Origin: Candidatus Paceibacter sp.
Lineage (GTDB): Bacteria > Patescibacteriota > Patescibacteriia > SG8-24 > DYFX01
Reading direction: 5' to 3'
Assembly (NCBI GenBank): GCA_020724945.1
Contig: DYFX01000002.1
Location: 1 to 45,808, forward strand
DNA length: 45,808 nucleotides
The notes beneath the pieces were generated by a model. That model searched no databases. It saw only the letters and a program-made list of their open reading frames with translations, and had not been told where the DNA came from. Both the position numbers and the translations under genes were made by a program. Shown piece after piece: positions 9,590-21,819 of this stretch (within the stretch, counting starts at the first letter, position 1; each line of letters begins with the position of its first letter).

Positions 9590-9931
9590 TCAACACCTCA
9601 TCACGAGAGAGTCTTGTGCCGAAGTCGGCGGCGGTATCCGACTCGGTTTCACGAACGCCAGGGATGTGGATGCGAGATCAGGCGCCGTCAGGTTGGCGGG
9701 AAGTATCGCCAGCAGCTGATGATCCTGCAGTGCGCGGTGCGTCGATGAACCTTGGACGGCGGCCTCGATGCTGTCACCGCAATGGTCCGTATCGACGTGC
9801 TGATTGACGCCGATCCTCGCATCATGTCCGTGGGCGGCTTCGCCGAAATGCGGAATGCAAAAGGAAAAGCCGGCGACGGCGAACACCGCGATGACGAGGG
9901 GGGCGGCGTAATGGCTAAACGACTTGCTCAT
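9590..9931 (-). CDS. Small His-rich membrane-anchored protein, first gene of the efflux operon
   Basis: 113-aa ORF with an N-terminal TM (APLVIAVFAVAGFSFC) followed by HFGEAAHGHD...HVDTDHCGD. No family recognised. Confidence 0.5.
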   Translation of the reverse strand: MSKSFSHYAAPLVIAVFAVAGFSFCIPHFGEAAHGHDARIGVNQHVDTDHCGDSIEAAVQGSSTHRALQDHQLLAILPANLTAPDLASTSLAFVKPSRIPPPTSAQDSLVMRC

Positions 9932-10065
9932 TACGGGTCATCTTAGAATCAATGCGTCGGGACGACAAGCGGTCGGTCCTGACGTGTCAATAGCTGTAAC
10001 GCAGGGACTCTGTCTCTGAAACCTCACCACCGCATGTTCGTCTCAACCGCCACCACACCCCACGC

Positions 10066-10089
10066 CGCTGGGAGCCCGCTGTCCAAGAA
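10066..10089. repeat. Right copy of the 24-bp inverted repeat bracketing the efflux operon
   Basis: cgctgggagcccgctgtccaagaa is the reverse complement of 2653-2676 with one mismatch. It sits in the loop of a larger hairpin (10050-10064 / 10099-10113). Confidence 0.85.
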
Positions 10090-10202
10090 TTGTTATCTCG
10101 TGGGATGTGGTGGCCGGTCCTGTCCGAATGCGAATGGGTGATTTCTTAGCGAGAATTCGCGCTGAAATCACCCTTCCCCGCCTTACGCTTCGGGACCCTC
10201 AA

Positions 10203-11726
10203 TCAGGTTTCGATTCCCCTTGGGGCTACCAAAAGGGACTCTTCCGCAAGAAGAGTCTCTTTTAGTTGGAAGATTGGCGACAATTCCGTAGTTCCAAAAT
10301 TTTCTCCATCGAACGGTATCTTGTTCTTGAAAATCAACTGCTGGAACTGAACGCGCGCCTGGGGGTTGCTTTCAAGTTCCAGCCAGGTTTTTGTCGCCTT
10401 GCCCACAAATTCGAAGCAATACCCCAACGCCTGCTCCATATTGAATTCGTCGTTTCGATGATCCTCTATCAATACATACTGCTCATCCAATTGCCGACCG
10501 ATGACGGATTTCTGTTCCTTAAAATCCTCGTCTGAGTAAACGCCCGATCGGTGCAGTTCAAACACTCGCTGCCTATCCAGTTCTAATTTCTCAATCGCTC
10601 TCCTGACAGAGGCTCTTTGAGCGTCTAGGTGCTTGTGCCTCGTTTTCCAGATATCAATGACAACTGCCTTAAACAGCTTTTCGAACTTTGGGTTGGGCGT
10701 GATTTTTTCTAACCGCTCCAAGAACGCTCGTTCAAATTTTTCTTTCGCAATAGACCTCGATTTTGAACAACCCTTCTTTGAGTGGTGGTAATAGGGGTAT
10801 TTCTTGCCCTTGTAACCGCGCGTGGCGCTACCCGACAGGGGTGTGCCGCATTCAGAACAGACAACAAATTTTCTCAAAGGGAATGTCGGGTTCTCCGCCG
10901 TTCTCCGTTTTGACCAACTCGAGTATCCGGGCTTTACCTGACAGGCTAAGAACAGCTGGCGCGGAACTATTGGTTCAAAGCCTCCAGCCCATTCTCCTCC
11001 GAATGCCTTAATGACGCCGCAGTAGACTGGATTAATGAGCATCTTTTGGACCTCCTGGTGTTTGATGGGTTTCCCACGCCGCGTACGCAGACCCTGACGC
11101 GTCCAGAAGGCAGCCAGGGCCTTGTAGGTGCGCCCTCCCTTGGCGTACTCCTCAAAACCAGCCCTTACGAGCGGGGCCTTAACTGGATCGGGAACGATAT
11201 TGGTCTTTTTGCCCCGCATCGGTTTGTAGTAACCAAGCGGGGGCGTCCAAACCCAATACCCTTCCCGTACTCGTTGAATCATCCCGCCTCGCGTCCTTTC
11301 TGTCCGTACATTGTTGTCGAATTCAGCGAATCCGGCGATAACTGTCTCCATTAACCTTCCGGTTGCGGTTTCATTTATCGGCTCTGTAACTGAACGCAGA
11401 GCCGTACCGACCTTGTTCAAGACGGCGCGGACCGTCAAATGATCTTCTGCCTTCCGACTAAAACGATCGAGTTTGTAAACAAGGAATATGCCGATGCGCC
11501 CTTTCTTTGCGGTGCAGTAATTGATCGCCTTGGTGAACTCGGTTCTGTCGGAAGTCTTTGCTGATTCACCCAACTCCACAAACACCTCGGCCACCTCCCA
11601 GTCTTGCTTACCTGCGTATTCCCGACACAGTTTTTCTTGGGTCTCCAAGCTAGTTCCTTCAACCTGCTCTTTCGAAGAAACTCGGCAATAAATTACGCAC
11701 GTCGCCTTGGTCGGAATTTGATTCAT
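10203..11726 (-). CDS. Large serine recombinase (resolvase/invertase N-domain + recombinase domain + zinc ribbon)
   Basis: 507 aa. Catalytic segment VIYCRVSSKEQ, then LVYKLDRFSR and a Cys-rich ribbon CSECGTPLSG...YYHH. The last 9 codons run into the tRNA-derived repeat. Confidence 0.9.
   Translation of the reverse strand: MNQIPTKATCVIYCRVSSKEQVEGTSLETQEKLCREYAGKQDWEVAEVFVELGESAKTSDRTEFTKAINYCTAKKGRIGIFLVYKLDRFSRKAEDHLTVRAVLNKVGTALRSVTEPINETATGRLMETVIAGFAEFDNNVRTERTRGGMIQRVREGYWVWTPPLGYYKPMRGKKTNIVPDPVKAPLVRAGFEEYAKGGRTYKALAAFWTRQGLRTRRGKPIKHQEVQKMLINPVYCGVIKAFGGEWAGGFEPIVPRQLFLACQVKPGYSSWSKRRTAENPTFPLRKFVVCSECGTPLSGSATRGYKGKKYPYYHHSKKGCSKSRSIAKEKFERAFLERLEKITPNPKFEKLFKAVVIDIWKTRHKHLDAQRASVRRAIEKLELDRQRVFELHRSGVYSDEDFKEQKSVIGRQLDEQYVLIEDHRNDEFNMEQALGYCFEFVGKATKTWLELESNPQARVQFQQLIFKNKIPFDGENFGTTELSPIFQLKETLLAEESLLVAPRGIET
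10209..10231 (+). repeat. Direct repeat copy 2 (orphan tRNA-Glu 3' fragment; attL-like for the low-GC element)
   Basis: 23/23 identity to 2562-2584. The sequence upstream of it is not tRNA-like. Confidence 0.9.
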
Positions 11727-11742
11727 ACAGCCTTACTTTACC

Positions 11743-12024
11743 TTACTTGGTTGCCGGAAACTGAACCCCAAGGGGATTTTTGGAACTACCAGCTCTATCC
11801 ATCCCCCACGCATCAACTGCCATCCGCCCAAGATCATAGAGAGCCGCCAAAACTGGCTCCAGTTCACAATCCTTGAGATCAGAGAGGGAAGGGTCAATTT
11901 TCCTTGCCTGGTCGGGCGTGAGCATCTGAACGAAAAAATCGAGAATTCGCATTCCCAACACAATAAGGACGAACTGTGTTGGAAATTGGCGATTTCCCGA
12001 AGTTCTGGGTTCAGACAGGCTCAC
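11743..12024 (-). CDS. Small hypothetical protein upstream of the recombinase (possible accessory or directionality factor)
   Basis: 93-aa ORF with a GTG start in the track; internal ATG starts are possible. It ends 16 nt before the recombinase start. No motif recognised. Confidence 0.35.
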   Translation of the reverse strand: MSLSEPRTSGNRQFPTQFVLIVLGMRILDFFVQMLTPDQARKIDPSLSDLKDCELEPVLAALYDLGRMAVDAWGMDRAGSSKNPLGVQFPATK

Positions 12025-12110
12025 GCTATGCGCATTCGCCCATCCAAGTATTCAGTTGTGATGTCAGTATGAATGGAGGCGAGAAACCCTGCAAGTGATC
12101 GGTTTTTTCA

Positions 12111-12150
12111 CCCAAATCCATCCAAATCCAGACAATTCCAGACAATATCC
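12111..12150. repeat. Four 10-bp phased units (2 x YCCAAATCCA, 2 x GACAATWYCM)
   Basis: cccaaatcca|tccaaatcca|gacaattcca|gacaatatcc, read directly from the sequence, in the divergent intergenic region. Confidence 0.7.
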
Positions 12151-12166
12151 CCATATAACCCAATAC

Positions 12167-12227
12167 TTTTTCCCACCATTTCCCACCCACTGCCCCACTC
12201 CGCCATTCCACCTTTTTCCACCATTTC
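12167..12227. repeat. Direct repeat TTTTTCC(C)ACCATTTC x2, enclosing a C-run/G-run quadruplex-type motif
   Basis: Copies at 12167-12182 and 12213-12227. C3-N7-C3-N1-C3-N4-C4 at 12172-12196, which is a G4 motif on the minus strand. Confidence 0.6.
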
Positions 12228-12265
12228 TGTTTCCATTAGTTTCCAATACCTCGCGCCTTAAAATA

Positions 12266-12293
12266 TTGTCATTTCGGTTAATCCTGCTAAGCT
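12266..12293 (+). promoter_or_regulatory. Candidate promoter for the structured leader / cargo operon
   Basis: TTGTCA (12266-12271), 16-nt spacer, TAAGCT (12288-12293). The predicted start lies at the 5' closing helix of the structured RNA. Confidence 0.4.
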
Positions 12294-12296
12294 AGC

Positions 12297-12478
12297 AGCA
12301 CAACTGAATGCCTAACCCCTGCAATCACCGCAGGGTATGGCAATAAACCCGACCAAGGCACTAACCCCGTCGTTAGCAAGCCTTGGTCGGTCGTATCCCG
12401 AAAGGGGTACGTTGGGCGAAAGCCCACAAGCTAGCGGCGGGTTTTGTGCTAAAACGCCGCGCCTAACCGACCAAGGCT
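12297..12478 (+). ncRNA. Candidate structured cis-regulatory RNA (riboswitch-like or attenuator-like leader), family not recognised
   Basis: Five local hairpins, two of them capped by GAAA tetraloops (12393-12410, 12413-12426). Long-range pairing 12297-12303/12444-12450. The 11-nt segment gccttggtcgg (12380-12390) can pair with either of two identical ccgaccaaggc copies (12349-12359 or 12467-12477); the latter abuts the ATG at 12479. Confidence 0.5.
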
Positions 12479-12808
12479 ATGAAAATCTATTTGTGGTTCC
12501 TGAGCCATTCTAAACAAACCAGAACGCTTATAATCCTCTCCGTTGCACTCCATCTACTAAACGCCATTCTAGGGCCACTGGAAGGCCGCAGGACGCTCTC
12601 GGCACTCGTAGGGCGTATCCTGGGTGGGTTCATTGGCACGTTCACCCCCGTCTTATTGAGCTCAATGATTATCGCGTTCCTGCCCTATATGGTTTTTCGC
12701 AGCGTCGCTGAGAAATACAAGCGATATTTGGACTATCTCTCAGTTATCCTTTTCCTTGTCACAATTTTGTTGGGTTGGGCTAGGATACGCTTGGTGGCAG
12801 GGGTGTAG
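12479..12808 (+). CDS. Small three-TM membrane protein, unknown function
   Basis: 109-aa ORF with three hydrophobic helices. AT-rich codon usage matches the island. It is followed by hairpin atggcga/tcgccat (12837-12859). Confidence 0.55.
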   Translation: MKIYLWFLSHSKQTRTLIILSVALHLLNAILGPLEGRRTLSALVGRILGGFIGTFTPVLLSSMIIAFLPYMVFRSVAEKYKRYLDYLSVILFLVTILLGWARIRLVAGV

Positions 12809-12876
12809 TAAATTACATATAAGCCATACTATGTTGATGGCGATGCTCAGCGTCGCCATTTCTATATAATCAGCAA

Positions 12877-15800
12877 ATGTCGGAAAAGTACCCATACAAA
12901 AAAAGCCAGCTGAAACGGCTTGGGCAAGCCGCGAAGTTAGCTGGTCCTAGATATACGCCTGAGCTTAATGTTGGCGTAGGAATCAGTTCAATTTTCGAAG
13001 GTCTGGGCAGGACCGAGAAATTTTATACCGAACTTAAGAAATCACTGCCCGATCTTGTCAGGCACATCCAGTACGTATCAAAACCCGAGATTGATATTGT
13101 GGCACACGATGAGCTTGTGGCAACCACCACGACGGCTCAGAAAGTGGCGGATTTACTTCTGCGAGTACCCGTTAGCGGAGTTAATAAAATCGATTCAGCG
13201 ACTCTTCATAAGCTCTGCGATTCTGGGATGACCCTAGTTAGAAACCTGATCTCGGTCCTACAAAAAGACGAGAGGGTTTCAAACGAACCGGGATCGAAGG
13301 ACCCAAACGGCACTAAACAGCAAAGTGAAAAGCACAGGTCTCACATCCACGATCTTTGGAAGATTTTTGATGCCCTGCATTCAATTTCGGTTTTCGTTGA
13401 GAGCTTGGTCGTACAAGCAGCAAATTCTCCCCAAGTTTTGCTCACGGGTGCCGCTGGTTCCGGCAAAACACACTTTCTTTGTGATCTAGCTAAGAAAAGA
13501 ATTGAGGCTGGATTTCCAACATATATTTTTCTTGGTGAGGAGTTTTCAGAATCCAGAAAGCCACTTAATACAGTAAAAAAGTTACTTGGATTCAAGGGGG
13601 GTGACGGTGCGTTTCTTGAATCAATTAATCGGTATGCCGCAAGCAAGCGTGTTCGGGCCGTGATCATCATTGATGCAATCAATGAGGCGCAAATCCGTGG
13701 AATTCGTTGGGATCAGCTCTGCAAGGTCAACCAATACAATAACCTCGCGGTTATTATCAGTGTAAGAACGGGCTTCGAGCAGCAGGAAGTGCCAAAAAAA
13801 ATTCTTGATGGTTTTTTAAAAGTTACCCATCGTGGATTCGTGGGGAACGAGTGGGAAGCTTATGCAAAGTTCTTTTCTAAGTCCGGTCTTCCGCTCCCAG
13901 AAACCCCGCTTCTTACACCCGAATTCCATAACCCGCTTTTCCTTAAAATATACTGTTCCGCCGCATCTAAAGCTCCGAACCCAGTCAGGGGCAACTACGG
14001 TTTCAGGTATATATTTGAGAAGTATGTTATTGCACAAGGAGAAGGTGTTCTTAAACAACTCGGTGAACCAGGTCAAAGTAATAGGCGAGTCTGGGATGGT
14101 GTTATCAAGGAAATCGCTCTAGAAATGGGTGACAGCGGGTTAGATAGACTCCACCAAAAACGAACGACTTCTATCGTTGCGAAACAATTCCCTGGTAAGG
14201 CAAGGGATGCGATCGTGGCACTGGAAAAACAGTTTCTGCTTATTAAAGTGCCTCGTTATAGGAGATACAAAATAGTGGGGTACGACTACAGATTCCCTTA
14301 CGAAAAGTTTAGCGACCACCTGATAGTACGCGCACTAATTAATAAATACCTTGATAAGACAAACCCGAAGAAATCACTGATTCCTGGTACAAAGCTTGGA
14401 GAAATCATTCGACGAGATCGGAATTACGGCTTGATCGAAGCCCTCGCAATTCAAATTCCACAAGACCTGAAGGGTCGAGAGTTGGTATATGTCGCACCAA
14501 AAAAATTCCGCTTCCAGAGCTACGCAAGAAATTCTTTCTTGGAAAGTTTGATTTGGCGCGATTTGTCAACACGTTCAAACGGGCAACACAAGTTCATTAA
14601 AACCAAACTGGTTCTAGATTTTATTAATAAATATCTACTTCCATTTGAACGAGGAAAGGAGAGCGTTTTGGAAGTGCTTCTTACTGTTGCTGCGGTTCCA
14701 GAGCATCCTCTGAACGCGCACATTTTGCATAAGCATCTATTGCGTATGCCTATGCCGAAGCGCGATGCATACTGGCTGCCATTTATCAATGAACGCTATG
14801 CCAACGAAAGCATCTTTGATAGGTACCTGGCTTGGGCGTGGTATGGCGGCGATAAAACAAAGATATCGGAAGAATCGGTGGGTTTGGCAGCAACGGTATT
14901 ATCGTGGTGCTTAGCAAGCTCAAATCGCTTTCTGAGAGATCGTGCCACGAAGGCCTTGGTATCAATACTCTACTCAAGACCGGAGGTTTTGTTACGTCTA
15001 TTGAAACGCTTTGAGTTGGTGGATGACCCATACATACAGGAGCGTCTTTTCGCAGTAACTTATGGCTGCATTCTTCAGGTTGGTGTACCGAGAGCAGGTG
15101 TTTTGCAGCTGGCCCACTACACATATGAGCGTATTTTCAAAAAGGGTGCGCCGCCCAAACATATTCTTTGGCGCGATTATGCAAGAAATATTGTCGAAAC
15201 AGCTGCCGCTATCGATCCAGCCTTTGAAGGCAAGGTTGATTTAAGAATGGTCCGCCCACCATATCGAAGTAGATTTCCTACGAAGGTTCCATCTACTGCG
15301 GTACTTAAAAAGAAATATTACCGTGATTATCGCAAAAATAAATCAAGGAGGGGCGATTACAACCAGATATGGTTTTCTTTGATGTATAACAATGGAGGGT
15401 CTATCGCGGATTTCGGGAATTACATTGTGAACTCAACCGTCGGTAATTGGTGCAATTTGCGTCTGAAAAAGAATGGGCAGCCCCCAAAATTTCCAAAGCA
15501 AATCTCAAAGGAGTTCGAAGAAAGTCTTGATGAGTTTTCTAAAAAAATTTGGGCGAGACTTGAAGAGGCTCGTCAATCTATAGCTACGCGAAGATTGTTT
15601 GAAGACTTACCCGTAAAGCTTGGAACGCCTCCCAAGAAAACTGGGACAAGTAGCAACGATGGAATCGAGATAAAGGCCCGAGAGTTGATTCTAAATGAAC
15701 TTGAGCGCTCATTTATTAATACGCTGGACCCGCACCAGAGGAATTTGTATAGAAAGGGCATTCTGAAAACGCGTGAAGGTCGATGGAATTTAGAGATTGA

Positions 15801-16977
15801 TCGCGCTCTCGTACAAAGAATAATTTTCACGAGGATTATCGAGCTTGGTTGGAATCCGAGACTATTTGATAAGTATGACGGTTCGGTGCGAGAAAGAGGT
15901 AGAGACGCCCATAAAGCTGAGAGAATCGGCAAAAAATATCAATGGATCGCCTTCCACGAAACCCTTGGGTTGATTGCTGACAATTTTGCGTTGCGAGACG
16001 GGTTCAGTGATGAAGGCGGGGGCGATTATCAAGGGGCTTGGCAGATTTGGCGGCGCGATATTGATCCAAGCTATATCGTGCCACCTAGTTTTGCACTGCC
16101 ACCTAAAGCTGTTCGCCCCTGGTGGTCACCCTCAAACTATAGTAGCTGGAGGTTGGGGTTAGGACACACTGAATGGACAAAAATAACTGACGATTTGCCC
16201 CAACAAAGAAAATTGCTTGAAATCAAAACAAACGGTGGGTGGTTGCTGTTAGACGGGTATCTCGGTTGGGATCAGCCGACCGCTCCGGGCATAGATCGAT
16301 ATGATGCTATACGCCGAAATGTCTGGTATCACATACACAGTTATCTAATCAAAGCCGATAAAGTAGGTGAGATTTTGGATTGGGCTAAAAAACAGAATTT
16401 TCTGGGGAGATGGGTGCCAGAGCCTCTGGAGCTGAGAGATGTTTTCATTCGAGAGATACCGAATGGTTTCCCCTATCAACACCAATATGGTACCGCGAAA
16501 GATGTTGGATGGCGCAAAGTCACAGAAAAGGTTGGGAGGGAAGAGGTATTTGAAGTTATTGTAGCCGCCGAGGAATACCATTGGGAGGGTGGTGGTTTTG
16601 ACTGCTCACTCAACGATGGCGTAATGATTCGGGTTCCCTGTAAGGAGATTGTTTCCGGAATGAACTTATCGCAAAGCCAACGGCTAGGTACCTTTGTTAA
16701 TGCAAATGGAGATGAAATTATCCAAGATGTCGCCGCCGAAAGTGTTGAGAAAAGCGCCCTGCTAATTAAAAAACGACCGTTCTTGAAGTTTCTTGAGGAG
16801 AATGGCTACGCATTGCTTTGGATTACTTTTGGAGAAAAATTGTTACTAGGGACGGCTGGAGGTGGTCAAGGATTTTTAGGACGACTGGAGGTCGGCGGCG
16901 CACACATACTTTCGAGCGAAGGGCGAATCTTTAGCCACGAGTACACTAACTGGTCACCACCCCACACCAAAGGTTGA
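12877..16977 (+). CDS. 1366-aa STAND/NACHT-like P-loop NTPase with HEAT-like repeats and unassigned N- and C-terminal domains
   Basis: Walker A GAAGSGKT (aa 191-198, nt 13447-13470). Walker B AVIIIDAINE (aa 261-270, nt 13657-13686). Downstream strand AVIISVRT. NACHT-like HNPLFLKIYC (nt 13927-13956). HEAT-like SNRFLRDRATKALVSIL...DDPYIQERLFAV (about nt 14917-15081). Confidence 0.8.
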   Translation: MSEKYPYKKSQLKRLGQAAKLAGPRYTPELNVGVGISSIFEGLGRTEKFYTELKKSLPDLVRHIQYVSKPEIDIVAHDELVATTTTAQKVADLLLRVPVSGVNKIDSATLHKLCDSGMTLVRNLISVLQKDERVSNEPGSKDPNGTKQQSEKHRSHIHDLWKIFDALHSISVFVESLVVQAANSPQVLLTGAAGSGKTHFLCDLAKKRIEAGFPTYIFLGEEFSESRKPLNTVKKLLGFKGGDGAFLESINRYAASKRVRAVIIIDAINEAQIRGIRWDQLCKVNQYNNLAVIISVRTGFEQQEVPKKILDGFLKVTHRGFVGNEWEAYAKFFSKSGLPLPETPLLTPEFHNPLFLKIYCSAASKAPNPVRGNYGFRYIFEKYVIAQGEGVLKQLGEPGQSNRRVWDGVIKEIALEMGDSGLDRLHQKRTTSIVAKQFPGKARDAIVALEKQFLLIKVPRYRRYKIVGYDYRFPYEKFSDHLIVRALINKYLDKTNPKKSLIPGTKLGEIIRRDRNYGLIEALAIQIPQDLKGRELVYVAPKKFRFQSYARNSFLESLIWRDLSTRSNGQHKFIKTKLVLDFINKYLLPFERGKESVLEVLLTVAAVPEHPLNAHILHKHLLRMPMPKRDAYWLPFINERYANESIFDRYLAWAWYGGDKTKISEESVGLAATVLSWCLASSNRFLRDRATKALVSILYSRPEVLLRLLKRFELVDDPYIQERLFAVTYGCILQVGVPRAGVLQLAHYTYERIFKKGAPPKHILWRDYARNIVETAAAIDPAFEGKVDLRMVRPPYRSRFPTKVPSTAVLKKKYYRDYRKNKSRRGDYNQIWFSLMYNNGGSIADFGNYIVNSTVGNWCNLRLKKNGQPPKFPKQISKEFEESLDEFSKKIWARLEEARQSIATRRLFEDLPVKLGTPPKKTGTSSNDGIEIKARELILNELERSFINTLDPHQRNLYRKGILKTREGRWNLEIDRALVQRIIFTRIIELGWNPRLFDKYDGSVRERGRDAHKAERIGKKYQWIAFHETLGLIADNFALRDGFSDEGGGDYQGAWQIWRRDIDPSYIVPPSFALPPKAVRPWWSPSNYSSWRLGLGHTEWTKITDDLPQQRKLLEIKTNGGWLLLDGYLGWDQPTAPGIDRYDAIRRNVWYHIHSYLIKADKVGEILDWAKKQNFLGRWVPEPLELRDVFIREIPNGFPYQHQYGTAKDVGWRKVTEKVGREEVFEVIVAAEEYHWEGGGFDCSLNDGVMIRVPCKEIVSGMNLSQSQRLGTFVNANGDEIIQDVAAESVEKSALLIKKRPFLKFLEENGYALLWITFGEKLLLGTAGGGQGFLGRLEVGGAHILSSEGRIFSHEYTNWSPPHTKG

Positions 16978-17095
16978 TTCCACTCCCCCGTGGCAGTCTC
17001 TTATCCAGCCACGGTTGAGGCTCCCCGCAAATCCCTTGCAAACGCCGCCCACGCCTTAAGGTCCGCCACGATTTCGTTCCAGATTTCAGTGGTCC

Positions 17096-18813: not shown

Positions 18814-21800
18814 TCAGTAGGTTCCCTTGCCGTCGAGGCCCCAGCCGACGAGGTTGGAGTTCTTATACTGCCAGAGGTACTTGCGCGGCGGGTTCGCGCG
18901 GTACTTGGAACGCCCCGTGCTGTCCCGCGTCCAGTAGTCGATGGACTCGTCGTGCGTCAGGAGCAGTTCCTTCACCATCGCCGAGAAGCTCGCTTTCTGT
19001 CCCGCGTCGGTCGTGAAGTACGCGCCCAGCGCGATCGGCACGCTCACATCGAGCGCGTGCTCGAAGCCGTTGTAGGCATTGTCCTCCGGATCGCCTTTCG
19101 CGCCGTAGCTGTAGGCGATGTAGTACGGGTACCAGCGGCCGACGCGCATCGGCCCGTCCTCCGCGCCGCGCTGGGCGACGCCGCGGTTCACTTCGCAGCG
19201 CGCGAGATCCACGAGCGCGGCCGGAACCGTGGCGTTGCCGACGGCATGATGGCTGCGCAGGAAGCCGTAGGCGAGCAGGCTCGACATCCAGGGCGAGAAG
19301 GTGTTCGCCTGGTCCTCCGGCGGATAGTTGAAGCAGCCGTTGGCGGGGGCGCCGCCGGGGCCGGCCGTCGTCTGACGCGCGCGCATCGCGGCGATGGCGT
19401 CGTTCACCACGGAGCGCTGGTGCGCGCTGCCGGTCAGTTCGGCGTCGACGGCGTGCGCCAGGAGGGCGTAGCCGCGATGGCGTTCCGTCTCCCCTGCGCC
19501 TTCAAGGTTGATATGGAACTCGAACCCCCAGGAGATGTGGCCGATCTTGGGCAGGAGCGAGGCGTCGCCGTTCAGCAGGTAGTTCGTGAGCAGGTTCTCG
19601 GAGTACGAATACTTCAGGTCATGCCACGAGTTCGTCGGGGACGGGTTCTTCAGCTTGAAGCTGCCGACGCAGTACGGGTAGTAGGTCCCCGCGCAATCCG
19701 AAGGCCCGTAGAGGTTCTGCGCGTAATGGTTCGCCGCGCGGTTGGCCTCGCGGAGCATGTCGACATTCCCGGTGCGCAGGTAGCCGTTATAGAAGGTCTG
19801 CGCGCGGTCGTAGAGCCACGGCTCCGGGTCGGTATAGAAGTCGATGATGTCGTCGCCCGAAGTGACGGGCCAGGACTGCTTCTCGGAGTGCCGGTTGATG
19901 AGCGAGTAGAAGAAGTCGTCGGTGGCCTGGTCGGAATCCGCCATGTAGGAGCGCGTGCCGGCGAGATTCACCATGGGCACGAGCGAGGCGCAGGAGAGGT
20001 ACTCGTGGTCGATCGCCGCGAGGACGCGCGGTTCGCGGATGGTGAGGCCGCTCGTGTTCACGGAGGGCGCGTAGGTGCCGTCGTTCACGACGCGATAGGT
20101 GTCGGCGACGGGCGTCTCGCTCGGCAGGCTCTGCGTGCGGGCGCGGTTGAGGCCGACCGTGACCGTGACCGGGGCGGTCGAGGCGAAGTTCATGTCGAAC
20201 TGCACGAGCACCGAACGGATGCCGGGGTTGCCGGTGGCGGAGAGGCCGTTGCAGAGCAGCGCCTGCGCAGGCATGTGCTCCCAGGCGCCGAGGCTGCGGA
20301 CGAAGGCCGGGATCTCCTGGCCGGAGGCGTTCGTCACCTTCACATTCGCGGCGTTCACGAGCGTTCCAGGCGCGAGCGGCAGACCGAACGAGACGCGGCG
20401 CGTCGTGCCGACGGCGTCGGAAGAGGGGTGCAGGGTCACCGTCACATCCTTCGCGGAGGCGTTGGCCGCGGCGCCATTCGACGAGACATCGTTCCGCATA
20501 TCCATCTCGGCGGTCATCGAACGCCAGCCGGTCGGACGCGTGACGAATCCGGCGGCCTCGAGGTCGGTCGAAGGGCTGGGCGTCGGGGAAGGGGTCGGGG
20601 AAGGGGTCGGGGAAGGGGTCGGCGCGGGAGTGGGGGTCGGGCTCGGCGCCGGGGCGGACGATTTCTTCTGCACGACATAGAAATGCGCGTCCTCGGTCAC
20701 GGCCGAAATCGTGCCGTCATCGTTCAGCTTGAACTGGAAGAGGACGCGGTCGAGCTGGGCGCCGGCGAGCGGGAGACTCTGGAAGACATCGACGACGGTC
20801 GACGCGGCGATCGGATAGTCCTGGCACTTCGACTTGGGGTTCGCGTCGCCTTGGAGGTAGGCGATGGCGCAGACTTCGAGCTTCTTGGTCGAGGACGAGC
20901 CGGACTCGACGCGCACCTTGGCCTTGGCCGTCAGCGAATCGGCATACGGACCGGCTTCCCAGGCGTAGTCACGGTAGTGCCGGATACGGCCCCAGCGGTT
21001 CAGGTTCACGCGCAGACTCTTGGCGCCGACGATCGGGTTCGCGGTCTCGTGCGCGACGGTGCCGTCCGACGACCCGTTCGGCTCGAAGCCGCCGAGCGAC
21101 AACTCGAATCCGGGATCGACGATGAGATCGACGAGCTCGTATCCGGTCGGCACGGTCGGAAGCGCTCCGGACGGGGCCGGCGCCGGTGCCGGCACGGGTT
21201 CAGGTTCCGGCGACGGCGCAGGAGCCGGGTCGCCGGAAGGCGGAGGCGGCGGCGTCGAATCGACCGGCGATGCGCCGAGGTTCTTGTCGGCGTTGATGCT
21301 GGTCGCGGCGGCGAGTTCCGCTTCGCGGGAGTACTCGGACGCGGAAAGGATGGCTGCGCCTTGCGCGTAGTTCACGAAGAAGGCGTCGGGGATGTCGTCG
21401 ATGAGCGCGGACCAGTCCGCGCCGAAGACGGCGGCGGCGACGGCCTCCGAGGACACATGGCGGATGACGCCGCCTTTCGCGACCGCGTAGACCTTGGGGT
21501 CGGTGTCGATCTTGATCATCTTGTAGCCCGGGCGGTAGGTGACATTGCCGCCGATCCCGATCGAGGCCATCTCGTCGGCGGTGACCGTCTGCACGCCGCT
21601 GAAATCGGCGTACCAGGTCTTGAAGACGCGCTCGTTCGGGAAGACATACCGCTTGCCGTCGGTGGCGTAGTAATACACCGCCGGATGATCCGCGCGTTTG
21701 ATGAGGCTCCCCTGCGTCGGGGCGGCGGAGGCGGGCGCGGGGACGCCGGCGAGACTCATCGAGAACATCAGGGCCAGGACCAGGACGCGGACGGCGGCGT

Positions 21801-21819
21801 TCTTCATATGCACAGGCAT
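18814..21819 (-). CDS. Large secreted protein with Pro/Thr/Ser linkers; C-terminal domain of unknown (possibly polysaccharide-active) function
   Basis: 1001 aa. Signal peptide MKNAAVRVLVLALMFSMSLAGVPAPASA. Linkers PPPPSGDPAPAPSPEPEPVPAPAPAP and PTPTPAPTPSPTPSPTPSPTPSPS. Confidence 0.8.
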   Translation of the reverse strand: MPVHMKNAAVRVLVLALMFSMSLAGVPAPASAAPTQGSLIKRADHPAVYYYATDGKRYVFPNERVFKTWYADFSGVQTVTADEMASIGIGGNVTYRPGYKMIKIDTDPKVYAVAKGGVIRHVSSEAVAAAVFGADWSALIDDIPDAFFVNYAQGAAILSASEYSREAELAAATSINADKNLGASPVDSTPPPPPSGDPAPAPSPEPEPVPAPAPAPSGALPTVPTGYELVDLIVDPGFELSLGGFEPNGSSDGTVAHETANPIVGAKSLRVNLNRWGRIRHYRDYAWEAGPYADSLTAKAKVRVESGSSSTKKLEVCAIAYLQGDANPKSKCQDYPIAASTVVDVFQSLPLAGAQLDRVLFQFKLNDDGTISAVTEDAHFYVVQKKSSAPAPSPTPTPAPTPSPTPSPTPSPTPSPSTDLEAAGFVTRPTGWRSMTAEMDMRNDVSSNGAAANASAKDVTVTLHPSSDAVGTTRRVSFGLPLAPGTLVNAANVKVTNASGQEIPAFVRSLGAWEHMPAQALLCNGLSATGNPGIRSVLVQFDMNFASTAPVTVTVGLNRARTQSLPSETPVADTYRVVNDGTYAPSVNTSGLTIREPRVLAAIDHEYLSCASLVPMVNLAGTRSYMADSDQATDDFFYSLINRHSEKQSWPVTSGDDIIDFYTDPEPWLYDRAQTFYNGYLRTGNVDMLREANRAANHYAQNLYGPSDCAGTYYPYCVGSFKLKNPSPTNSWHDLKYSYSENLLTNYLLNGDASLLPKIGHISWGFEFHINLEGAGETERHRGYALLAHAVDAELTGSAHQRSVVNDAIAAMRARQTTAGPGGAPANGCFNYPPEDQANTFSPWMSSLLAYGFLRSHHAVGNATVPAALVDLARCEVNRGVAQRGAEDGPMRVGRWYPYYIAYSYGAKGDPEDNAYNGFEHALDVSVPIALGAYFTTDAGQKASFSAMVKELLLTHDESIDYWTRDSTGRSKYRANPPRKYLWQYKNSNLVGWGLDGKGTY
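20582..20617. repeat. 12-bp tandem repeat x3 (gtcggggaaggg) encoding the PT/PS linker
   Basis: Three perfect units read directly, with degenerate units on both sides. Lies inside the 1001-aa CDS. Confidence 0.9.

Follow-up and report, generated by a model that had tools for sequence, protein, structure and literature searches.

A short-form Avs2 without a nuclease domain, carried by a serine-integrase island of Candidatus Paceibacter

Introduction

The Avs2 (AVAST type 2) anti-phage system was reportedly described by Gao et al. in 2020 and 2022. In KpAvs2, a helical bundle sits between an Mrr nuclease and the nucleoside triphosphatase (NTPase) (Bechon et al. 2024), and the type of sensor carried by Avs2 proteins is clade-specific (PMC12803255). 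Here we analyze a gene encoding a STAND NTPase of 1366 amino acids (aa) in a stretch of 45,808 nucleotides (nt) from Candidatus Paceibacter sp. (assembly GCA_020724945.1, contig DYFX01000002.1, positions 1 to 45,808 of the forward strand), hereafter referred to as the window. Inspection of the letters had suggested a NACHT/STAND-like NTPase whose N-terminal and C-terminal regions were both unassignable, and whose effector would be either a novel domain or a protein supplied in trans by an adjacent gene with three transmembrane (TM) segments. We report that the gene very probably encodes an intact, horizontally acquired Avs2 STAND NTPase, which belongs to a large clade lacking the nuclease and would sense phage as its homologs do.

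Results

Profile and structure searches identify an Avs2 protein

The open reading frame (ORF) predicted at 12877..16977 on the + strand is present, starts with ATG and encodes 1366 aa. It matched six Avs2 profiles in PADLOC, the best being PDLC02164 with 1109 bits, where aa 13-1360 align to profile positions 178-1497 of 1504. The NCBIfam Avs2 equivalog NF041813.1 was matched as well, at 1048.6 bits versus a curated cutoff of 1000 (aa 22-1347 to positions 4-1312 of 1317). A sequence search of the PDB returned 9o4e_A as its sole match (AVAST type 2 anti-phage system protein Avs2; E 2e-164), with a collinear alignment of aa 16-1350 to residues 175-1474 of the 1484-residue chain. By these matches, the protein is a divergent new member of the known Avs2 family and not a new system, and we refer to its gene as avs2.

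The ORF is clearly far beyond what chance would yield. Its homologs are numerous: one search gave 363 at E≤1e-10, and a second one gave 1816 representative clusters (50% identity) with E≤1e-30. The nearest relative, encoded in a Parcubacteria metagenome-assembled genome (MAG), is 51% identical, and identity to solved and plasmid-borne Avs2 proteins of the long, nuclease-bearing form is ~31-35%. Approximately 190 positions are at least 90% conserved in the relatives of the short, nuclease-less form described below; all but 5 of these are kept here, and the 5 are conservative changes.

In Pfam, all P-loop matches of the protein (NACHT, AAA_22, and nSTAND3) were below threshold, which is why it looked unassigned by sequence alone. 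NACHT (PF05729) was the best of them, with 18.5 bits versus a gathering threshold of 26.7 (E 0.0019), whereas its relatives matched nSTAND6 (near threshold), NPHP3_N (25.2 bits, cutoff 24.8), and nSTAND1. The STAND half of the original prediction is thus borne out and the NACHT half is not, despite NACHT being the best P-loop match: judged by these scores, the protein is of the STAND class, yet not a NACHT protein as Pfam defines it. No better fit to a non-STAND ATPase clade was seen in the Pfam searches of the protein and its relatives.

Domain organization of the protein

The N-terminal region (aa 1-185; 12877..13431, + strand) was modeled with AlphaFold2 (AF2) from a 59-sequence alignment and consists entirely of helices (pLDDT 87.7). 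Foldseek comparison of this model with the PDB gave generic helical bundles only, none at E≤0.001, and no enzyme-like match. In the alignment with 9o4e, the solved Avs2, the region pairs with residues ~175-340. Model and alignment together identify it as the bundle, a spacer or docking domain without catalytic motif, that in canonical Avs2 links the Mrr-type nuclease to the NTPase; it corresponds to the helical bundle described by Bechon et al. (2024), and is no longer an unassigned segment.

The NTPase module follows at aa ~186-460 (13432..14256, + strand, the boundary at aa 460 being approximate), and is delimited by its motifs, by conservation and by the sub-threshold Pfam matches. Walker A is GAAGSGKT (aa 191-198, nt 13447-13470), with K197 as its lysine; Walker B is AVIIIDAINE (aa 261-270, nt 13657-13686), with D266 and E270; the strand AVIISVRT (aa 291-298) contributes the sensor arginine R297, and the NPLFL helix occupies aa 352-356, inside nt 13927-13956. 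G191, K197, T198, D266, E270, and R297 are conserved across relatives, and all NTPase motifs appear intact. Every motif listed in the original prediction, in the NTPase and elsewhere, lies exactly where it had been placed.

The continuous alignment with 9o4e defines a helical-repeat arm at aa ~461-860 and then a poorly conserved linker at aa ~860-959 (together 14257..15753, + strand). The arm contains the motif SSNRFLRDRATKALV at 14917-14961, which had been described as HEAT-like; as far as the alignments tell, it is no more than the best-conserved helical motif in the core of Avs2, with R684, R687, D688, T691, and K692 as the conserved residues of the arm.

The C-terminal domain (aa 960-1366; 15754..16974, + strand) was modeled as a mixed alpha/beta fold (pLDDT 83.3, pTM 0.83). 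Its only significant Foldseek matches in the PDB were 8dgc_A and 8dgc_B, which are Avs3 bound to the terminase of phage PhiV-1 (E 1.9e-7, probability 1.00, 412 columns, 14% sequence identity). By its predicted fold, this region is the sensor domain common to terminase-binding Avs proteins. Two motifs had been flagged here, ERIGKKYQWIAFHE (aa 1015-1028) and EEYHWEGGGFDCS (aa 1232-1244), and residues invariant in both short and long Avs2 forms include E1015, R1016, K1019, K1020, Y1021, W1023, D1035, R1060, D1063, E1193, and D1242. We read ERIGKKYQW and the other flagged motifs as parts of the sensor that probably serve in target recognition or in its structure. The earlier remark that neither terminus has a recognizable catalytic domain was correct, and its corollary that the termini are unassignable was not: profile and structure searches place both in the described Avs2 family.

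A clade of Avs2 proteins without the N-terminal nuclease

The N-terminal nuclease of canonical Avs2, of ~165-175 aa, is absent from the protein, which begins where PDLC02164 has reached position 178 and 9o4e residue 175. An in-frame stop is found at 12835, 42 nt upstream of the avs2 start. When ten N-terminal modules of long forms were compared with the whole window by tblastn, nothing better than E 0.12 was obtained, which rules out a nuclease remnant as well as a split nuclease gene. A substitute domain hidden elsewhere in the protein was ruled out in turn by a segment-by-segment comparison of lengths between short and long forms, in which no segment was longer in the short ones.

Among the best 120 homologs, ~90 share the same start residue, and in ~25 the N-terminus is extended by a module of ~163 aa bearing a PD-(D/E)xK-like signature (FEELCxQLA...GTPDxGVEC...WQxKYF). 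This label comes from the motif alone, since the module had no match in Pfam and no sequence match in the PDB, the N-terminus of 9o4e included. In a neighbor-joining tree, 86 short forms constitute one pure clade, with a divergence of ~33-51% identity, separate from the cluster of nuclease-bearing forms; that long-form cluster also includes a few intermediate forms whose N-terminal stubs measure 30-40 aa. Short forms account for about a quarter of the best 150 representatives of the family. The in-frame stop, the 86-member clade with a common start and the lack of any compensating insertion together indicate that the short form is not a truncation. These comparisons support a nuclease that is truly absent and a short form that is a stable architecture within a known family.

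The short forms are already included in existing annotation. NCBI labels them Avs2 (e.g., a 1373-aa protein of Caldicellulosiruptor), and the PADLOC Avs2 model PDLC02165, with 1375 positions, has essentially the length of the short form. The missing nuclease therefore bears on mechanism and not on family membership.

avs2 is the cargo of a serine-integrase island

The gene lies within a low-GC island of ~7 kb (approximate limits 9932..16990), recognized by its GC content of 44-51% versus 60-70% in the flanks; avs2 itself has ~46% GC in a host of ~66% GC. The left end of the island falls between the start of a host gene at 9931 and the stop codon of an integrase at 10203, and the right end is at most ~20 nt past the stop codon of avs2. 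The integrase (10203..11726, - strand) is a large serine recombinase, with Pfam matches to Resolvase (3e-33), Recombinase, and Zn_ribbon_recom, and to PHROG 95 (integrase, 1e-90). Besides these, the island contains a LOOT RNA and an orphan ORF, and avs2 is its sole substantial cargo. Repeat searches and a shuffle-controlled local alignment of the two borders revealed no significant symmetry between them that would mark attachment sites. On the same strand as the integrase, a 93-aa ORF (11743-12024, - strand) stops 16 nt upstream of its start, where an excisionase or regulator gene is typically placed; neither Pfam nor PHROG gave a match for this ORF, and it is absent from the JGI annotation of the contig, a metagenome contig of 119 kb.

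The flanking DNA includes an RND-efflux operon whose nearest relatives are mostly from MAGs of Patescibacteria, or Candidate Phyla Radiation (CPR) bacteria (Paceibacterota, Kaiserbacteria, Lloydbacteria, and Vogelbacteria), with the qualification that several taxon labels of third-party annotation (TPA) MAGs among these matches look unreliable. The host would accordingly be a CPR bacterium of high GC content. The nearest relative of the RND-transporter locus is without the island; synteny is kept on the left and not on the right, and breaks at the junction. Also in the flank is a predicted secreted host protein of 1001 aa (18814-21819, - strand), with a signal peptide and long Pro/Thr/Ser-Ala linkers, and with no Pfam match at E≤0.01.

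Association with integrases extends beyond this locus. Serine recombinases were found near avs2 in 6 of the 10 short-form neighborhoods examined, and the short-form clade thus appears to travel as integrase cargo.

A LOOT RNA and other features around avs2

Between the integrase and avs2 lies a LOOT RNA (Rfam RF03000; 12309..12427, + strand), which scored 87.2 bits (gathering score 46.4), covers model positions 1-121 of 121 and folds with a z-score of -5.6. The mobile element that carries the closest relative of this Avs2, in the Parcubacteria MAG, has a second copy (13028-13150, + strand of that locus; 65.7 bits). Both copies are oriented divergently from the recombinase-side module, and both are followed after ~45-50 nt by an ATG on the same strand in the context CTATGA(A/C)AATC, opening ORFs that are unrelated to each other. 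The two loci point to LOOT as a component of serine-recombinase mobile elements in CPR bacteria, where it may serve as a leader or regulatory RNA. Within the copy in the window, the 3' half of the central stem (gccttggtcgg, 12379-12391) normally pairs with ccgaccaaggc upstream (12349-12359). A second copy of ccgaccaaggc, at 12466-12478, abuts the ATG at 12479 and offers the 3' half another pairing partner, through a perfect inverted repeat of 13 nt, and a further hairpin at ~12434-12460 separates the 3' half of the LOOT stem from this ATG-abutting repeat. Such an arrangement could constitute a candidate alternative-pairing switch at the start of the ORF downstream of LOOT.

That ORF (12479..12808, + strand; 109 aa) is the one with three hydrophobic segments that had been proposed to provide the effector in trans. 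It exists as an ORF, and we consider it an orphan and a doubtful gene. Its matches are weak (DUF7473, E 0.057; a PHROG membrane protein, E 0.004), a homolog search in 5.8 billion proteins returned only itself, it was not called as a gene in the JGI annotation of the contig, and tblastn against the loci of relatives found no counterpart. It is set apart from avs2 by a weak terminator-like hairpin bearing a T-run. Having neither a homolog nor a counterpart at the loci of relatives, it was dropped as a candidate partner of Avs2.

Immediately upstream of avs2 (12836-12879), an inverted repeat (ATGGCGA-N9-TCGCCAT) is followed by a perfect TATAAT at 12865-12870, which ends 6 nt before the ATG; there is no Shine-Dalgarno sequence, and a consensus promoter scan upstream of the gene found no -35/-10 pair. 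The avs2 transcript could be leaderless or have a very short leader.

A search for phage-borne homologs yielded MG543995.1 (Staphylococcus phage UPMK_1), as a partial match, and one weak match in an unannotated contig. The UPMK_1 product is a hypothetical protein of 670 aa (102832-104844) with 27.6% identity to aa 475-1303 of Avs2, covering the helical arm and the sensor and lacking the NTPase. Since the record is labeled a partial genome and also contains an acetyl-CoA synthetase and transposase fragments, we take the match for probable host DNA, or a truncated avs2, and not for a phage decoy.

Discussion

Mode of action of a nuclease-less Avs2

If the protein works as its homologs among Avs2, Avs3, and Avs7 do, its C-terminal sensor would recognize a conserved protein of the phage, with the large terminase subunit as the most probable target. 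Binding would release the NTPase from its ADP-bound, autoinhibited state, and ATP binding would then drive oligomerization. The output step cannot be the canonical nuclease in cis and, as far as could be checked, the output mechanism of short-form Avs2 is uncharacterized. Given that avs2 is the sole substantial cargo of its island and that we found no conserved partner gene (see below), the short form is most likely self-sufficient. Our preferred, still tentative reading, to which we give somewhat less than even credence, is that ATP-driven oligomeric capture of the terminase would itself block DNA packaging, protecting by sequestration and not by killing the cell. Interference of this general kind is found in the SaPI protein Ppi, a small mobile-element protein that binds the small terminase subunit and interferes with packaging. 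The broader proposition, that the nuclease-less clade as a whole defends without a cell-killing effector, as non-abortive sequestration NLRs distributed as single-gene cargo of serine-integrase islands in CPR and other bacteria, is speculative, and we regard it as rather unlikely; in a variant of it, the N-terminal helical bundle would itself turn effector on oligomerization.

Several points weigh against sequestration and against our account of the protein more generally. The nuclease of KpAvs2 is of the Mrr family, and its K71A mutant loses all defense and toxicity (Bechon et al. 2024); likewise, each Avs tested is inactivated when its effector is mutated (PMC12803255). Binding alone is therefore insufficient in those proteins. 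KpAvs2 also senses Ksap1 during infection, and the trigger could thus be other than a terminase. Furthermore, aa 186-960 were assigned from alignment alone, the AF2 models covering aa 1-185 and aa 960-1366. Finally, we know of no short-form Avs2 that has been tested experimentally.

Alternative explanations

The main alternative to sequestration is that short-form Avs2 is only a sensor, whose bundle recruits and activates an unlinked effector or a conserved host protein, in the manner of sensor/helper NLR pairs. We consider this a real possibility, albeit a distinctly minority one. The bundle of KpAvs2 is a docking surface that binds the essential accessory protein Avap2 (Bechon et al. 2024), and SeAvs7 incorporates the host protein EF-Tu (PMC12803255). 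Accessory genes of the Avap type accompany ~5% of Avs2 homologs, and in some short-form loci the gene immediately preceding avs2 is nuclease-like, such as that for a NERD protein in Caldicellulosiruptor. Nevertheless, Pfam and PADLOC scans of the immediate neighbors revealed no conserved partner of short-form avs2, and in an all-versus-all comparison of 196 flanking ORFs from nine loci only serine recombinases recurred, together with a DpnII restriction-modification (R-M) module that two of the loci have in common. The other neighbors are typical defense-island genes (DpnII and other R-M systems, BREX, NERD), and the domains of Avap1 (radical SAM) and Avap2 (DUF6375) occur neither among the ORFs of the island nor among the called genes around avs2 in the window. 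Reliance on one particular unlinked gene would also fit poorly with avs2 moving between very different genomes as the sole cargo of its 7-kb island, and the bundle is almost without conserved surface residues.

It is improbable that either terminus (aa 1-185 or aa ~1000-1366) represents an effector domain of a new kind. Annotation by itself leaves room for novelty, as neither terminus matches any known catalytic domain, and the C-terminal invariant residues listed above are, apart from Y1021 and W1023, all charged. In principle, moreover, the bundle might turn membrane-active when it oligomerizes, as in plant coiled-coil NLRs (CC-NLRs). However, both termini match long-form Avs2 position for position, and there the effector is the nuclease, which is additional to them and essential. 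The C-terminal fold matches the Avs3 terminase-binding sensor only, and ERIGKKYQW is helical in the AF2 model instead of lying on a strand as in PD-(D/E)xK-type nucleases. As for the bundle, the only residues at least 90% conserved within the clade are A22, R25, Y26, N31, and F40. Apart from an N-proximal motif (A/G-x-R-Y-TPELN...F, with RYTPELN at its core) nothing in it is conserved, a limitation not expected of an enzyme, and its sequence shows no sign of hydrophobic or TM character.

That the gene is a non-functional relic, in decay since an ancestral Avs2 lost its nuclease, is more improbable still. In favor of this, a domain essential in KpAvs2 is missing, and a few intermediate forms with N-terminal stubs exist. 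The ORF is, though, uninterrupted over its 1366 aa and keeps nearly all conserved positions, and short forms are common among the family representatives; the 86 short forms with the same start constitute one old clade, which indicates long-term purifying selection on the architecture. Least credible of all is a membrane-disrupting trans effector encoded by the 109-aa ORF and activated by Avs2: TM effectors do occur in other defense systems, and the ORF lies only 68 nt upstream of avs2 on the same strand of the same island, but besides being an uncalled orphan separated from avs2 by the hairpin, it starts right after LOOT, at a position occupied by an unrelated ORF at the other LOOT copy.

Significance and comparison with known systems

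Standard defense-system profiles identify Avs2, and the annotation question is thereby settled. What remains concerns the whole family and not this locus: how Avs2 proteins without an effector protect, be it through terminase sequestration, host-factor recruitment or otherwise. All characterized Avs proteins depend on their N-terminal effector, yet here is a deep and widespread Avs2 clade with neither an effector in cis nor a conserved partner, and its mode of protection would extend the sensor-NTPase-effector model of bacterial NLR-like immunity. The locus is, in addition, a compact natural example of defense-gene mobility, with integrase, LOOT RNA and avs2 in ~7 kb, and it supplies genomic context for the orphan LOOT RNA.

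The most distant of the systems compared is the SaPI protein Ppi, where the analogy is hypothetical and functional only: a mobile-element protein would block a competing phage through its terminase, without killing. There is no homology, and Ppi is small and targets the small terminase subunit. SeAvs3 (8dgc) shares the C-terminal alpha/beta sensor fold and the STAND core, but belongs to a different Avs family, with 14% identity in the aligned region; Avs3 is said, in Gao's work of 2022, to be a protein of ~2000 aa with a Cap4-type N-terminal nuclease. Canonical Avs2 (9o4e, KpAvs2) is collinear with our protein in bundle, STAND NTPase, helical arm and C-terminal sensor, with all NTPase motifs in common, and its gene likewise stands alone in defense-island or mobile-element contexts. 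It differs in having the N-terminal nuclease, the demonstrated effector of KpAvs2, and the three-gene operon of KpAvs2 (Avs2, Avap1, and Avap2) differs further in its two accessory genes, neither of which is found here. The closest counterparts are the short-form homologs, such as UV01_C0005G0011 of Parcubacteria GW2011_GWA2_42_14 and the Avs2 of Caldicellulosiruptor sp. DIB 104C. Although the nearest of them is only 51% identical, and the low-GC avs2 described here resides in a high-GC host, they have the same length, start residue and domain order and the same lack of a nuclease; several also adjoin a large serine recombinase, and one of these elements also carries a LOOT RNA.

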